Shown here: positions 3,683-17,348 of the stretch, one piece after another | How the letters are laid out: every line of letters begins with the position of its first letter | How positions within the stretch are numbered: position 1 is the first letter of the stretch | Source: a virus | Taxonomy: Duplodnaviria > Heunggongvirae > Uroviricota > Caudoviricetes | Length of the DNA: 53,426 nucleotides | Reading direction: 5' to 3' (one strand) | Virus record (IMG/VR): IMGVR_UViG_2541047798_000005 | Program-made: the position numbers and the translations under genes | The notes under the pieces: generated by a model | Database searches by the model: none | Seen by the model: the letters and a program-made list of their open reading frames with translations, nothing else | Told to the model about the DNA's origin: nothing

Positions 3683-5104
3683 TTAAAAAGATGCGTTATT
3701 CTGGTTGTTTCGTGGTGAGAATCGGCTTGCAGACGGACGTTGTTGCATTGACTGGATGCAAGCTGACGCCGCGCGGGCCTGGTCGCATGGTAAGATGTTG
3801 CCGTTGTCGTCAAACCGCTGGTAAACAGTCCCCGTTTTCCCGTGACGGTTTTTCGAAACAATGATCTCCATATATTCGCGGGCAACAGACTGTTCATCAT
3901 AGTACCCGTCGCGGTAGACCATGATGATCCGGTCTGCGTCCTGTTCAAGATTACCGGAATCACGCAGATCAGAATTGTTCGGGCGCTTGTTCGGTCGTTC
4001 CTCAACGCGGCGGGATAATTGCGCCAGTGCCAACACTGGTACGCGCAATTCTTTCGCCATCATCTTCAACGACCATGACAATTGCCCTACAGCGAGATCG
4101 TGACGTTCTGCCTTAGCCAGCTTCATTAACCCGATGTAGTCAATCATTACCATACCCAGGTTGGGATAATCCTGCTTCATTCGTTCAGTTGTGGCGCGTA
4201 TTTCCTCGACAGTTAACTGTGATGCATCAACAATCCACACATCGAGATCAGCAAGTGCGCTCATTCCCTGGGCAACGTGCGCCCATCCTTCGTCATCCAG
4301 TTTTACCGGATTACGTAAGCAATCCGTTGACAAGTTCCCTGCGCCAGCGATAGCGCGTTCAGTCATCTGATCGAGCGACATTTCAAGCGTGAACAACAAA
4401 ACGCCGACCCGCTGACCTTCTCCGCCAGGGTATTGGCGTTCAGCAGCCGCGCGGGCAATTGCCAACGCCAACGCCGATTTACCAGACCCTGGGCGTCCGG
4501 CGATAAGCACCAGATCAGTAGCGTTAATGCCGCCTAACATTTCGTCGAGTGGGTCAATCCCTGTTTTGATGTTGTCAGAGTTCACGCCACACTCCATGCG
4601 TTTACTTAGCACTTCCGTGTATTCCTGGACAGCATCGCGCAACAGCACCGGGATAATCTGATCTTTTGTTACCTTTAATTTTGAATACCGGGAATCAAAA
4701 TCTTTCATCGTCTCTTTGACGACCTCAAGTGTCCCAGTTTCCAGTTTGTAGCGCATATCGTCGATGAGTTCCAACATCTGCCGCCGCTGGTGCTCTTCAC
4801 GTAGTAGCTGTGCATATCCCTTCAGGTTGGCAGCAGAAGGGCACGATCGCGCCGTTTGCATTAGCGGTACAAAGTTTTCATTACCAATCTCATCACCAAC
4901 CAATAACGCGTCGATAAGATTCCTGTTTCTGGCTTGCGCCCGGATAATTTCAAACGCCCGCTTATACAGCGGAATAGTGAACACTTCAGGATCTAGCGTA
5001 GCGAGAACATCTTGCGCGTTAGGAGTGAGGCCGCCTAATAGCAGCCCGCCGATAACTGACGCTTCACGTTCCTGCAGTAGTGAGTTTATCTGCTCAGTTA
5101 CCAT
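3683..5104 (-). CDS. Replicative DNA helicase, DnaB family
   Basis: 473 aa; Walker A GRPGSGKS, DnaB C-terminal RecA-like domain with characteristic N-terminal domain; GGAGG RBS. Confidence 0.9.
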   Translation of the reverse strand: MVTEQINSLLQEREASVIGGLLLGGLTPNAQDVLATLDPEVFTIPLYKRAFEIIRAQARNRNLIDALLVGDEIGNENFVPLMQTARSCPSAANLKGYAQLLREEHQRRQMLELIDDMRYKLETGTLEVVKETMKDFDSRYSKLKVTKDQIIPVLLRDAVQEYTEVLSKRMECGVNSDNIKTGIDPLDEMLGGINATDLVLIAGRPGSGKSALALAIARAAAERQYPGGEGQRVGVLLFTLEMSLDQMTERAIAGAGNLSTDCLRNPVKLDDEGWAHVAQGMSALADLDVWIVDASQLTVEEIRATTERMKQDYPNLGMVMIDYIGLMKLAKAERHDLAVGQLSWSLKMMAKELRVPVLALAQLSRRVEERPNKRPNNSDLRDSGNLEQDADRIIMVYRDGYYDEQSVAREYMEIIVSKNRHGKTGTVYQRFDDNGNILPCDQARAASACIQSMQQRPSASRFSPRNNQNNASF

Positions 5105-7371: not shown

Positions 7372-8424
7372 TCAAAGAACGCCAGCGCGCGTATCACGTA
7401 GCGTTTTTGGTTTAAGCAGGAAATCAAGTGTCGCGGTGAAGCCATCGCCGAAGTAAAAATCTGAAGCCGTGTTTTTGAACGTTTCGAAGTAGGCGACAAA
7501 GCCGTTAATGCTTTTGTCTTTCAGGTAGTCAGTGAACGCATAGATCTTGCGTTCAAGATCCCGATCCAGTTCGGCAGGTGGTAACAGGCCGTCAAACGTG
7601 CTGTTAAATGCTTCCACCACGTCGGCAGCGTTTACAGTGGCTGACAGTTTGCGCCATTGTTCAGCATCAGTCAGATACCCATCAAATTTAGTTACCCGGC
7701 AAATGTTGATAGGCTTAGGTACTCCACCACGGCTACGCCATTGGGTTAAAGCCCACTCAATTACTAACGTGATCTCATTCTCCGTATACGCTTTACGTGT
7801 TTTTGTTTCTGTCAGTAGTTCTACGAATGGCTTAGCATCACGACATTTGCATCCTGCCTTGTCGTTGTAGAAGGCAAGGCAACGCAATGCCGCTTCGTTT
7901 ACGCCATCCTGATTGACCATTTTTTGTTCATTTTCGACAATACACGAAGTGTATATATCTTTTTCTCTTTCTTTTTCTACTTCTAATTCTAATTCATGAC
8001 CCTTTCCTGACCCGGTCATGACCCTATCATGACCTTTTTGTGTTGGATTGATTAACTTTTCTAATTTTAATTGCTCCTTCGCTGTGTTTATGGCGGCCCT
8101 GTAAGCGCTTTTAGAAGTCATTGATTGGTCCAGCCTTTTCAATAACTTTAAACAAGTTATGTGGCCTTGAGAACATTCAAACAAACCAATTTCGATGAAG
8201 TATTTCATCATTTCTTCTATACGTTTTTCAGTAGATCCGACGTTTCGCGCAATTATTCTTGCGTCATGTCGTAGGTCAAAAGTTAGATTGTGCTGATCTA
8301 CGTCATAAGTTATTAGTTCTAGGCAATACCAATAAAGCCCGTACCCTTCCAGGCCATAATCTAACAAAACGTTTTGAAGTTTTTCATCGCGGTTCGCATC
8401 GCTGTCATGCTTAAACCACTTCAT
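7372..8424 (-). CDS. Replication initiation protein with phage replisome-organizer-type N-terminal domain
   Basis: 350 aa; N-terminus MKWFKHDSDANRDEKLQNVLLDYGLEGYGLYWYCLELI typical of replisome-organizer / DUF4373-type N-domains; sits where lambda O would be. Confidence 0.65.
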   Translation of the reverse strand: MKWFKHDSDANRDEKLQNVLLDYGLEGYGLYWYCLELITYDVDQHNLTFDLRHDARIIARNVGSTEKRIEEMMKYFIEIGLFECSQGHITCLKLLKRLDQSMTSKSAYRAAINTAKEQLKLEKLINPTQKGHDRVMTGSGKGHELELEVEKEREKDIYTSCIVENEQKMVNQDGVNEAALRCLAFYNDKAGCKCRDAKPFVELLTETKTRKAYTENEITLVIEWALTQWRSRGGVPKPINICRVTKFDGYLTDAEQWRKLSATVNAADVVEAFNSTFDGLLPPAELDRDLERKIYAFTDYLKDKSINGFVAYFETFKNTASDFYFGDGFTATLDFLLKPKTLRDTRAGVL

Positions 8425-8427
8425 AGA

Positions 8428-8685
8428 TCATCCCTCCGGCAACATCACTACATAGACATCACTGAATGCATCAAGACGACAAACAAATCCTTTATCCATT
8501 AACGCGGCGAAGGCATCATGTACCGTATGAACAGGAAGTTCACACATTGCGGCTACTTCTTTGCGTGATGCATCATGTACCCGTCCTTTGTTATCTGCCT
8601 TTTCAGCCAGAGCCATTAAGACAAGTTTTTGAATCGGGCTATTAAGTTTTACGTTCCATGCTTTACTAATCATGTTCATACTCAT
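8428..8685 (-). CDS. Cro/CII-like small HTH regulator, first gene of the minus-strand early operon
   Basis: 85 aa from ATG at 8685 with AGGAG RBS; predicted HTH; divergent from cI-like gene. Confidence 0.55.
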   Translation of the reverse strand: MSMNMISKAWNVKLNSPIQKLVLMALAEKADNKGRVHDASRKEVAAMCELPVHTVHDAFAALMDKGFVCRLDAFSDVYVVMLPEG

Positions 8686-8794
8686 CGCATTTTCTCCTAT
8701 GGTTAGAGTGAACGCGCGGGCGGGCATCCCATTAGCATTAGATAGCAGTGACTGACCGCTCAACAGATCCCGCCGTTGCGTGATATTTGTTTTT

Positions 8795-8827
8795 CGCTTC
8801 GCAGCGACACCGGATTTTTAAAGAGCA
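8795..8827 (-). promoter_or_regulatory. nut-like site (boxA-like TGCTCTTTAAAAA plus hairpin CGCUGCGAAGCG) in leader of the minus-strand operon
   Basis: Minus-strand reading gives a close match to rrn/lambda boxA followed 8 nt later by a short GNRA-type hairpin. Confidence 0.4.
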
Positions 8828-8990
8828 TAAGGTAAGTGCCTTTTTGTGCCTTCAGTTATCTTTTTCCTTGCGTCTTTGCAAGTATGGCCTTACCTTGTCT
8901 GCAAGTTTACAAAATGGAATTTTAAGATCAAGGCTTAAAATACACGTTTTGTGACTTGCATCAAACTTTTTGAGGTTATAGGGTAGCGAC

Positions 8991-9638
8991 ATGAAAACAA
9001 AATGGTATGACTTAGCAAAGCAGCTCATGCGGGCGCAGGGCATGAGCCAGGATTCACTCGCGGATCGTATGGGGATAACTAAAGGCGGCCTGTCACACTG
9101 GCTGAACGGTCGCCGAGAGCCAAATCTTGAAGATATTGCGCGGATTATGCGCGAGCTTGGTCGTCGGCAGTTTACTGTTACACATGATGGCATGGTCATT
9201 GATGATTCTGTTTCTAATACACTTCAGGCCGTGCCGCCGCGTGATTTAGGTAGTTACCCGGTTATTGACTGGAAGGACACAGTAAACAATATGGATGACG
9301 CAAGGCGTTCAGCATTACGACACGTTACGACTAGCGTTATTTGTTCAGATGACAGTTACTGGCTGGTTGCCAAAGGTGAATCAATGAACGCGCCGCAGGG
9401 GTTGAGCATCCCGGCGGGGACGATGATACTTGTGGACCCGCACGCGCCAGCTATTGACGGCAAACTGGTTATAGCCCAGCTTGAGGAAGGGCAGATACCG
9501 ACGTTTAAACAGTTGATTATTGATGGAGGTCAAAGGCTTTTACGTTCGCTCAATCCGCTGTATCCGCCAATCCCTATGAATCCAGAATCAAAAATTATAG
9601 GCGTGGTGGTTGATGCGAAGATCGTAAACCTGCCATAA
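8991..9638 (+). CDS. cI: cI-like repressor (N-terminal HTH, C-terminal S24 LexA-like peptidase domain)
   Basis: 215 aa; HTH (GMSQDSLADRMGITKGGLSHWLNGRR); S24 motifs GESM and K-containing C-terminus; no RBS before ATG, consistent with a leaderless pRM-type transcript. Confidence 0.85.
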   Translation: MKTKWYDLAKQLMRAQGMSQDSLADRMGITKGGLSHWLNGRREPNLEDIARIMRELGRRQFTVTHDGMVIDDSVSNTLQAVPPRDLGSYPVIDWKDTVNNMDDARRSALRHVTTSVICSDDSYWLVAKGESMNAPQGLSIPAGTMILVDPHAPAIDGKLVIAQLEEGQIPTFKQLIIDGGQRLLRSLNPLYPPIPMNPESKIIGVVVDAKIVNLP

Positions 9639-9644
9639 ACATTA

Positions 9645-9668
9645 GCCGCCGAATGGCGGCTTTTCTTT
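9645..9668 (+). terminator. Rho-independent terminator downstream of cI
   Basis: GCCGCC-gaat-GGCGGC hairpin followed by TTTTCTTT. Confidence 0.7.
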
Positions 9669-9761
9669 GCCTGGAAAACACCAAAACGTAAACAGAAAAC
9701 GTTATTTATTATTTAAATATCAATGGCATATAAAATATTTTAAAAAAGTATACAAAATGGA

Positions 9762-9790
9762 TTGACTCGATGTTTTACGGGGCGTATATT
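9762..9790 (+). promoter_or_regulatory. pL-like sigma70 promoter (TTGACT-17-TATATT)
   Basis: Near-consensus -35/-10 with 17-bp spacer, immediately preceded by the TACAAAATGG motif; about 350-nt leader before the N-like gene. Confidence 0.6.
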
Positions 9791-10044
9791 GCGAGTCAAA
9801 GGAAGGGCGCAGGTAACAAAAGCAACTTCCTGGCACTTTAAAAATCAGGCTTAACACCTTGTCAACCGTGGAGTAACTCCCCGATGGGGGACCGAAAGCG
9901 GCACTGATAACAAGGCGCATGGGGTGTTTAAAGCGTTACATCCCCCACGAAACCGCACGCAAGGCGACGAGTCAGCTTGCTTGGAGTGAGCAAGGTCACG
10001 CCGGGAACGGCGATGATTGCGGGATTAGTTGAAAGATGTTAAGC

Positions 10045-10082
10045 CGCTCATTAACAATCTGGTCAGCCGCTGGAAGTGCGGC
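10045..10082 (+). promoter_or_regulatory. nutL-like site: boxA-like CGCTCATTAACAA plus boxB-like hairpin GCCGC-UGGAAGU-GCGGC
   Basis: boxA has one mismatch to rrn boxA GCTCTTTAACAA; hairpin 8 nt downstream; lies between pL-like promoter and N-like gene. Confidence 0.55.
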
Positions 10083-10138
10083 AATTAACGAAGATGATTT
10101 TTTATTAAGTATCATCAAGGATATACGGAGATCAGATT

Positions 10139-10429
10139 ATGAGCGTTACAATTATATATGGTAAATGTGATAGCAAAATGAATGCCAGGGAACGCAGAAG
10201 GATAAAAAGAGAAAACGAAAGAAAATCATCACCTGCAATCAATAAAACAGACAATGTGGATAAAGCTATTCGATTTGCAAACGAGGAAAGATGCAAACCA
10301 AATAGCATTAAAGAACGTCGCAAAGGATCAGTAAAATGGTATACGGAAAATGAAAGCGGCAGCTACTACCACGCAACGCAACCACGCCATTTAGGGGAAA
10401 AACCCCTGGATAAAGTCCGCTACCATTAA
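10139..10429 (+). CDS. N-like transcription antitermination protein (arginine-rich motif)
   Basis: 96 aa; arginine-rich motif NARERRRIKRENERK near N-terminus, as in lambda/P22 N; first gene after pL/nutL-like elements. Confidence 0.55.
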   Translation: MSVTIIYGKCDSKMNARERRRIKRENERKSSPAINKTDNVDKAIRFANEERCKPNSIKERRKGSVKWYTENESGSYYHATQPRHLGEKPLDKVRYH

Positions 10430-10575
10430 TACAAAATGTAAACATCCGGAGATGACATTATGGTTATTCAGGCGCTTCAATTCAAACTGGCAGTAGCGGA
10501 AATGCTTCACGATGCCGAAATGTGGAGCGCCGCGAATAAAGCCTTATACATAGTGTTAACAGCACGGGAGATTAA

Positions 10576-11220
10576 ATGGTGAAAACAGAGTTACATAAAA
10601 AGCTATGGACGATTCAGCAAACGCTGAACGCGCCGAAAAATCAGCGTAATAATTTTGGTGGATATAATTACAGGTCGGCGGAGGATATTTTAGAGGCGGT
10701 TAAACCACTGCTTCAAAGTATTACGCTGACTGTAAGCGATGAAATTGTCCTGATCGGCAATCGCTATTATGTGAAAGCTACGGCGACGCTAAGCGACGGT
10801 GAAGACGAAATAGCGGTAACGGCTTACGCCAGGGAAGAAGAAAGCAAGAAGGGAATGGACGCAAGCCAGCTAACAGGTGCGACATCAAGTTACGCGCGAA
10901 AATATGCTTTGAACGGTTTATTCTGCATTGATGATGCGCGAGATCCTGATACTGACGCATACGCTAAGCAGACAGGCCAGCAGCCTCGCCAGCAGAAAAA
11001 CCCACCAAAACAACAACCACAGCAGCAGAAAGCGCCGCCAAATCCTGATGAAGTATTAGCACGTTTCTGTGATGCAGCAGCGAAAGCGCAGGACGCTAAC
11101 AAGCTGCGTGAAATATTTGGCAAATGCTGGAAATTACTACCGGAAGGATCGGAACATCGAATCAAGGCAAAAGATGTTTATGACATCCGGGTAGCAGAGC
11201 TTAACGGGGAGATGGGTTAA
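10576..11220 (+). CDS. erf: ERF-family single-strand annealing recombinase
   Basis: 214 aa; NFGGYNYRSAEDILEAVKPLL... typical ERF N-domain; Q/P-rich linker. Confidence 0.8.
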   Translation: MVKTELHKKLWTIQQTLNAPKNQRNNFGGYNYRSAEDILEAVKPLLQSITLTVSDEIVLIGNRYYVKATATLSDGEDEIAVTAYAREEESKKGMDASQLTGATSSYARKYALNGLFCIDDARDPDTDAYAKQTGQQPRQQKNPPKQQPQQQKAPPNPDEVLARFCDAAAKAQDANKLREIFGKCWKLLPEGSEHRIKAKDVYDIRVAELNGEMG

Positions 11221-17190: not shown

Positions 17191-17348
17191 AGTTTACAAA
17201 ATGGCATCATTGCGTGATGCGGATCACATAATGGCGCTTTTGCCTTGTTTGGTGGTATCCATTTTGTATACTTCAAGCAAACAAAATGCTCTTTAAAAAT
17301 CCGGCAGCGCTGAAATGCGTAGAAATCACCTGAAAAGGAGAGAGCATT

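Follow-up and report, generated by a model that had tools for sequence, protein, structure and literature searches.

The described system closest to the locus studied here is that of coliphage mEp021. Its Gp17 is an N-lambda-like protein reported to be responsible for early antitermination via three nut sites, nutL, nutR1 and nutR2 (PMC11893012, section 3.5), and both the antitermination activity and the use of the three sites were shown by others (Valencia-Toxqui et al. 2023, Arch Virol 168:92, cited here through PMC11893012). According to the same source, the repressor gene has nutL on its upstream side, gp17 is preceded by nutR1, and nutR2 follows a gene for a cytosine methyltransferase; all 48 group members retain arginines 17, 19, 20 and 24 of Gp17; and the group has been characterized as dependent on Nus factors (Kameyama 1999, cited in PMC11893012). 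Here, we analyze positions 8795 to 10429 and their surroundings in IMG/VR record IMGVR_UViG_2541047798_000005, a stretch of 53,426 nucleotides (nt) that we call the window, for which an original prediction made from the sequence alone had proposed an N/nut-type antitermination architecture with rrn-like boxA sequences. We consider it very probable (roughly 90%) that the locus is the early N-type processive antitermination system of a coliphage of the mEp021 group.

Judged from its sequence, the source is a temperate coliphage of this group (mEpimmI). The region 8400-10600 is 91 to 93% identical at the nucleotide level to the Mexican Escherichia coli phages mEp515, mEp010 and mEp021. Within 9640-10440, identity with the sister phage mEp021 is 93.7%, and the match is 100% to prophages of E. 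coli M1/5, GN04592, GN05505 and other strains. These three strains are listed among the mEpimmI prophages analyzed by Negrete-Mendez et al. 2025 (PMC11893012), who compared the Gp17 system across 48 group members that apparently include prophages identical to the window over the compared region. The antitermination system found here is already known; the one feature undescribed in the accessible literature is a dimorphic, folded segment of about 213 nt in the gp17 leader, which is present in this phage and most of its relatives (long type) and missing from others (short type).

The layout is lambda-like. On the plus strand, a CI-like repressor gene is followed by an intrinsic terminator, a promoter, a leader of about 342 nt, the gene for a basic protein of 96 amino acids (aa), a kil-like open reading frame (ORF) of 40 aa, erf and ssb. 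On the minus strand, a candidate promoter and a nut site precede the divergent replication genes, which run from approximately 8685 downwards.

Nut sites and the N-like protein

The evidence from this genome consists of sequence anatomy, conservation, covariation and family membership, and the mechanism we propose is modeled on lambda and P22. The CI-like repressor gene is flanked by two divergent promoters that would be under its control. Each early transcript carries a nut site composed of a boxA, a spacer of 7 to 8 nt and a boxB hairpin, and the first gene past nutR1 encodes Gp17. The N-terminal arginine-rich motif of this protein is expected to bind the GNRA-type loop of boxB, and the near-rrn-consensus boxA to recruit the host factors NusB/NusE; Gp17, NusB/NusE, NusA and NusG together would then turn RNA polymerase terminator-resistant. 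The predicted targets of read-through are the recombination genes from nutR1, the replication genes from nutL, and the nin and late-regulator region from nutR2.

The plus-strand promoter of the gp17 operon, TTGACT-17-TATATT, is found at 9762-9790 as had been claimed, and it agrees with the consensus at 10 of 12 positions. Neither hexamer varies in an alignment of 16 relatives, and both are retained in three divergent lineages (L093 to L095) despite different spacers. It had been described as pL-like; in mEp021 nomenclature, it drives the rightward operon. For the minus-strand replication operon, the sequence TTGATC-16-TAAACT at 8904-8931 has 8 of 12 matches, below the scan threshold. Read from 8931 to 8904 as TTGA(T/C)C-16-TAAACT, its hexamers are conserved in 11 relatives, mostly as TTGACC, and we regard it as a conserved candidate for the promoter of this operon.

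Three complete nut sites are present in the window. The first, nutR1, occupies 10045-10082 of the plus strand and comprises boxA CGCTCATTAACAA (10045-10057), spacer TCTGGTCA (10058-10065) and boxB GCCGC-UGGAAGU-GCGGC (10066-10082); the boxA and hairpin are those of the original prediction, with boxA one base from its implied start. The mirror site that had been proposed in the minus-strand leader is likewise found, with boxA, spacer and GNRA hairpin, at 8827-8794. This site, nutL, consists of boxA TGCTCTTTAAAAA (8827-8815), spacer TCCGGTG (8814-8808) and boxB UCGCU-GCGA-AGCGA (8807-8794). Missed previously were a third full site on the plus strand at 17287-17320, nutR2, with the same boxA TGCTCTTTAAAAA (17287-17299), spacer TCCGGCA (17300-17306) and boxB GCGC-UGAAAU-GCGU (17307-17320), as well as a degenerate boxA-plus-spacer copy at 9833-9849. 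The boxA-plus-spacer signature GCTCWTTAAMAATCYGG has four matches in the window against 0.08 expected, a number reached in 0 of 100 shuffles, and the fourth of these matches is the degenerate copy. In folding predictions, the boxB hairpins at the nut sites form as expected. Located between a homolog of the mEp021 methyltransferase and ninF/ninG, nutR2 sits where the published nutR2 of mEp021 does. We infer that the plus-strand site at 10045-10082 corresponds to the published nutR1, because it is the sole boxA-boxB unit upstream of gp17 in every group member, short-leader phages included.

Conservation across relatives indicates that the boxB hairpins are maintained, since the stems covary while the loop motif is retained. 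Present in all long and all short leaders, nutR1 has five kinds of stem (GCCGC/GCGGC, GCUAC/GUAGC, GCAC/GUGC, GCACU/AGUGC and UCGC/GCGA) with the loops UGGAAGU, UGAAAU or GAAA. The nutL site is conserved in every lineage, its loop being GCGA, GUGA or GCAA and thus always GNRA, and in the nutR2 stem a G.U pair changes to A-U among relatives. As read from these alignments, the selected feature of boxB is a short hairpin whose GNRA tetraloop is set between a U and an N. The same nutL hairpin occurs in phages whose Gp17 proteins differ in their arginine-rich motifs, and the stem sequence is therefore unlikely to set specificity.

Downstream of nutR1, gp17 (10139-10429, plus strand) encodes the predicted 96-aa N-like antiterminator. 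As had been claimed for the gene after the nut site, it carries an arginine-rich motif, NARERRRIKRENERK, at residues 15-29, making Gp17 a small basic protein with an N-terminal motif that includes R17, R19, R20, R21 and R24. Over its full length (residues 1-95), Gp17 matches PHROG 271, "anti-termination protein N-like", with an E value of 1.3e-13. Lambda N (4e-23) and P22 gp24 (7e-40) match the same family, as do two divergent Gp17 types (1.7e-9 and 1.1e-7), and homology to known N proteins (PHROG 271/Pfam PF25694) is in this way found. BLASTP aligns Gp17 with P22 gp24 over the N-terminal 20 aa (50% identity, E = 0.017). The Gp17 family is narrow, with 31 clusters down to 60% identity, none of which has an informative name. 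The N/nut reading is thus borne out by the PHROG 271 match, the conserved nut sites, the covarying boxB stems and the published work on mEp021.

The boxA elements are nearer to rrn than to lambda, as had been noted from the sequence. Measured against fetched references, nutL and nutR2 each have one mismatch to the rrnH boxA TGCTCTTTAACAA and nutR1 has two, versus 3/5, 3/5 and 4/4 mismatches, respectively, to the boxA elements of lambda nutL/nutR. Likewise, the rrn-type consensus boxA UGCUCUUUAACAA is found with one (nutL, nutR2) or two (nutR1) mismatches, and in short-type relatives the nutR1 boxA is identical to the rrn 13-mer. This raises an alternative in which a near-consensus boxA alone would recruit NusB/E/A/G and SuhB, with no phage protein, and the hairpins and the basic protein would be incidental. 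Besides the closeness of boxA to rrnH (only 1 to 2 mismatches), an extra boxA-like copy at 9832 that lacks an adjacent boxB-type hairpin would fit such an rrn-type system. In rrn operons, however, boxA comes after the boxB hairpin and the system works without a phage protein. Here, instead of a dispensable hairpin upstream of boxA, a covarying hairpin lies downstream of it at all three sites, in the lambda-like order, and an N-family gene follows nutR1. Full stem covariation and a constrained GNRA-type loop uphold boxB at the three sites, and published work credits Gp17 with antitermination. We consider rrn-type antitermination highly improbable and favor the N-type system.

The original prediction had further suggested that rrn-like boxA sequences hint at stronger dependence on host NusB/NusE. 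This does not follow from the boxA sequence. In lambda, antitermination from a consensus boxA generally tolerates nus mutations better instead of becoming more factor-dependent. In addition, the P22 boxA shares the GCUCUUUA core, and lambda is therefore the outlier among N-dependent phages. A near-consensus boxA does fit the described Nus dependence of the group.

Several points weigh against an N-type system at this locus. The nutR1 boxA of this phage departs from the consensus core (U6 to A). The Pfam N_peptide match of Gp17 is subthreshold (E = 0.019; 15.9 bits, where the cutoff is 27.9), BLASTP finds no similarity between Gp17 and lambda N, which align only through the family profile, and a sequence search of the PDB with Gp17 returned noise only, with no solved structure matched; the NusA- and RNA polymerase-binding parts of Gp17 are therefore unmappable. 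The equation of 10045-10082 with the published nutR1 is inferential, and antitermination by the Gp17 of this genome is deduced from sequence and from the results obtained with mEp021.

Two further observations were made around the nut sites. Approximately 100 nt on the minus strand, from nutL to the ribosome-binding site of the first replication gene (8700-8793), show hardly any variation, the most divergent lineages included. This stretch contains a long hairpin closed by GGCGGG...CCCGCC (about 8772-8717) without a U-tract, which may have a regulatory role or correspond to a published terminator. A metagenome contig, L109 (OQVL01004386.1, 6647-6840), carries a long leader and boxA and breaks off inside the boxB loop (GCCGCTGGAAG|AATCCC). 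We rejected it as a genuine variant, as it continues into a ComM/Mg-chelatase-like bacterial gene and is most likely an assembly chimera.

A dimorphic folded segment in the gp17 leader

The leader, with its start taken as approximately 9797 and the gp17 AUG at 10139, measures about 342 nt. Its plus-strand segment at 9834-10046, about 213 nt in length and predicted to form a closed RNA domain, is missing in 5 of 16 relatives, namely, mEp013, mEp044, mEp554, the PAR prophage and the strain 190 prophage, and likewise in the three divergent lineages. In the short-type phages, nutR1 lies about 45 nt after the start site. Among 21 unique long sequences the segment is nearly invariant, including in a lineage with a Gp17 of only about 70% identity, whereas 17 of about 40 columns vary in the 5' leader just upstream; its conservation far exceeds that of the 5' leader and gp17 in the same genomes.

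The additional RNA structure that had been suspected in the leader is supported in part. The segment folds as a single closed domain (minimum free energy, -78.8 kcal/mol; z = -3.1), with z = -3.5 for the whole leader. It is closed by a 9-bp helix, P1, in which GGCUUAACA (9848-9856) pairs with UGUUAAGCC (10037-10045); further predicted features are helix 9 (9976-9982 with 9988-9994) and the helix 10 hairpin (9995-10017) with its GNRA loop at 10004-10007. The consensus fold comprises 58 pairs in 10 helices, and 99.8% of its cells are paired, compared to 37 to 45% in slid controls. However, covariation backs only 1 of the 10 helices: 50 of the 58 pairs never vary, and helix 9 alone is changed on both sides, with three double compensatory changes plus a wobble in essentially one lineage. 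Most of the other substitutions affect unpaired positions or leave pairing intact.

Two copies of the boxA-plus-spacer sequence, at 9833-9849 and 10046-10062, flank the segment and are identical to each other at 13 of 17 positions. The upstream, degenerate copy (GGCACTTTAAAAA-TCAGG, 9832-9849, plus strand) is located at about +35 of the leader and occurs in long-type leaders only. Its sequence, GCACTTTAAAAATCAGG, matches the nutL/nutR2 boxA plus spacer at 15 of 17 positions and is invariant in the 21 unique long leaders. Every short-type leader has an intact GCUCUUUA core in its downstream boxA, compared to only about 2 of 92 long-type loci, a count to be read with the phylogenetic nonindependence of the loci in mind. 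The deviations in long-type cores are of three kinds (U6A, G2A+C3U and G2U).

Database searches place the segment in this context only. An exact 22-mer of the segment has 35 loci in viral contigs, and 35 of 35 lie between this promoter and gp17. A two-anchor pattern yields three chance matches among species-representative genomes, all in unrelated GC-rich coding DNA, and only near-identical copies plus chance matches in metagenomes. The segment is found in no plasmids, and among E. coli genomes and phages only in members of this phage group. Rfam 15 gives no match in the whole window at gathering thresholds, and at E values up to 10 nothing overlaps the segment in scans of 8400-10600 and of the leader alone, where the weak neighboring hits are attributable to chance; ARAGORN detects neither transfer RNA nor transfer-messenger RNA. 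Since the segment is confined to the promoter-gp17 context, we rejected the ideas that it is a dispersed mobile element, derives from the host or represents a widespread RNA family. A hammerhead was rejected by eye, based on CUGAUAA instead of CUGAUGA, in addition to the lack of an Rfam match.

Inside the segment lies a 37-aa ORF annotated as mEp021 gp16 (9919-10032, plus strand), and the segment could in principle be the gene for this protein. Of 21 unique variants, 20 keep this ORF open, and the records of mEp021, mEp010 and mEp515 annotate it. However, substitutions distribute over codon positions as 7:4:6, without third-position bias, and 13 nonsynonymous changes compare with 6 synonymous ones. 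The stop codon is lost in one variant, the lone candidate Shine-Dalgarno sequence (AAGG) is just 3 nt from the ATG, there is no PHROG match for gp16, and the NCBI annotation of the prophages does not call the ORF. Clustered changes within it alter 5 of 7 residues yet retain RNA pairing, exactly at the covarying hairpin. The substitution pattern indicates that the gp16 ORF is probably not protein-coding, and we regard a 37-aa protein as a very unlikely explanation of the segment.

We see an even chance, based on these sequence comparisons, that the segment is a constrained RNA element, that is, a functional cis-acting RNA domain, which could act in processing or stability, regulate gp17 expression, or serve as a scaffold in which P1 places the upstream boxA copy beside boxB. 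The closed fold (z = -3.1 to -3.5) with its excess of paired cells over slid controls, the compensatory changes in helix 9 and the mostly unpaired or pairing-preserving character of the remaining substitutions argue for this, as do conservation well above that of the 5' leader and gp17, the lack of a coding signature, and the loss of the downstream GCUCUUUA core through three different deviations in the long type. On the other side, the 50 invariant pairs speak neither for nor against the fold, the covariation in helix 9 traces essentially to a single lineage, divergent homologs of the segment were found in none of the databases searched, and the accessible literature does not mention it. The segment is also dispensable, because phages without it, mEp013, mEp044 and mEp554 among the five relatives concerned, are viable.

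A neutral passenger remains a serious rival to a constrained RNA element, even if on balance we lean against it. The segment would have been acquired once, through recombination between boxA-like sequences, and spread recently by homologous recombination, its invariance reflecting youth. The two flanking boxA-plus-spacer copies, the dimorphic presence and the near identity of the segment even where Gp17 is only about 70% identical all fit such a history. However, the seven clustered substitutions in helix 9 all retain pairing, a pattern that takes time and selection to arise; divergence is seen in the flanking repeats (identical at 13 of 17 positions) and not in the interior; and searches of E. 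coli genomes, plasmids, phages, viral contigs, species-representative genomes and metagenomes turned up no donor.

For a constrained element, one tentative model, which we think rather unlikely, is that the long-type nutR1 is a "split" or augmented nut site, in which a self-folding domain of about 200 nt stands between the upstream boxA copy and the boxA-boxB pair. If true, the domain might tune Nus-factor loading or Gp17 expression, shield the long untranslated leader from Rho, or yield a stable phage RNA, and the degraded downstream boxA of the long type would reflect a handover of NusB/E binding to the upstream copy. The leader dimorphism, the segment, the second boxA-like copy and the association of long leaders with a degraded boxA are unmentioned in PMC11893012. 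We consider the dimorphic structured segment and its relation to the two boxA copies the lead worth following. Related viable phages with and without it offer a natural comparison for RNA structure between boxA and boxB, bearing on Nus-factor and N loading, Rho sensitivity and N expression.

A separate pairing appears in the minimum-energy fold of the leader. There, the end of boxA and the nutR1 spacer (AAUCUGGUC, 10056-10064) form 9 bp with GAUCAGAUU (10130-10138), located between the Shine-Dalgarno sequence and the AUG of gp17, an arrangement reminiscent of the translational control of lambda N. The pairing is weaker in STEC308-type phages and missing from the L095 lineage, and this modeled interaction may be a clade-specific feature or due to chance.

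An 11-mer repeat and the neighboring genes

Associated with both promoters is a near-palindromic 11-mer, TACAAAATGGA/TACAAAATGTA, for which the window contains 16 sites at one mismatch or fewer versus 1.7 expected; none of 100 shuffles reaches 16. The sites start at 4740, 5124, 6261, 8908, 9751, 10430, 13830, 13854, 17195, 17258, 31189, 39262, 39287, 41875, 42266 and 42338, and those checked against the ORF map lie within or beside intergenic gaps. The plus-strand copy at 9751-9761 adjoins the -35 element of the gp17 promoter as a candidate operator or promoter-associated site; it is invariant in the 16 relatives and retained in the divergent lineages. Another copy (8908-8918) overlaps the candidate minus-strand promoter, and two are located directly 5' of nutR2. 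The 11-mer may serve as an operator or be bound by some other regulator of the phage. Operators are not defined in PMC11893012.

Between the two promoters, the CI-like repressor gene (8991-9638, plus strand) has Pfam HTH_3 and Peptidase_S24 domains. It is followed by an intrinsic terminator with a T-run (9644-9661, plus strand) identified by a terminator scan, and the mEp phage records likewise annotate a cI repressor and a terminator. Terminator-like hairpins are moderately enriched downstream, with 32 between 10000 and 29000 against 19.9 +/- 4.8 expected. Within gp17, an antisense terminator-like hairpin (GTGGTAGTAGCTGCCGC and then TTTCATTTTC; 10356-10372, minus strand) corresponds to an ARNold-predicted terminator also annotated in mEp013 and mEp044, and might stop antisense or convergent transcription.

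Directly after gp17, the 40-aa ORF at 10460-10582 resembles lambda Kil at a subthreshold level in Pfam (E = 2e-4) and falls into a PHROG with no assigned function (E = 4e-32); the order N, kil, recombination genes mirrors the lambda pL operon. In a prophage of E. coli E21845/O/A (L007, 1995-2580), an HNH endonuclease gene is inserted between the kil-like ORF and erf, an insertion absent from the window and the other relatives. On the minus strand, the first gene past nutL (8428-8685) encodes an 85-aa winged-helix protein resembling the N-terminal domain of replication-initiator PHROGs (E = 4e-23), and genes for a Lin1244_N-domain protein and a DnaB helicase follow downstream. The ORFs of the window include no cro-like gene in the interval from the minus-strand promoter to nutL, and the early-right organization differs from that of lambda.

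Comparison with known systems

As a real N/nut system recovered from sequence alone, this locus has value as a positive control. As in lambda, an N-terminally arginine-rich protein of the same PHROG family goes with boxA, spacer and 5-bp boxB units in each of the two divergent early operons, the N gene directly follows nut, the order of repressor, promoter, nut, N, kil and recombination genes is kept, and dependence on host Nus factors is described in the literature. Unlike lambda, the phage has three nut sites rather than two, no cro-like gene between promoter and nutL, and an extra structured segment upstream of nutR1. Lambda itself has an RNase III-sensitive leader structure downstream of nutL. 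The boxB loops here are GNRA tetraloops flanked by U and N (UGCGAA, UGAAAU and UGGAAGU), compared to the GAAAA/GAAGA pentaloop of lambda, and the boxA core is GCUCUUUA where lambda has GCUCUUA.

The closest classical N protein is P22 gp24, which shares PHROG 271 with Gp17 and is 50% identical to it over 20 aa at the N terminus (MSVTIIYGKCDSKMNARERR versus MTV-ITYGKSTFAGNAKTRR), and P22 also has the GCUCUUUA boxA core. In contrast, P22 has GACAA pentaloops in boxB and two nut sites, and the rest of its protein is unrelated by BLASTP. Compared to the E. coli rrn system of boxA with NusB/NusE/SuhB, the boxA TGCTCTTTAAAAA is one position from the rrnH sequence TGCTCTTTAACAA; unlike in rrn, the site also comprises a phage protein and, following boxA, a boxB hairpin. 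Finally, the Gp17-nut system of mEp021 and the mEpimmI phages is the same system, with the same Gp17 length, arginines, nut positions, repressor and flanking genes, and at 91 to 100% nucleotide identity to mEpimmI members the differences are only allelic.

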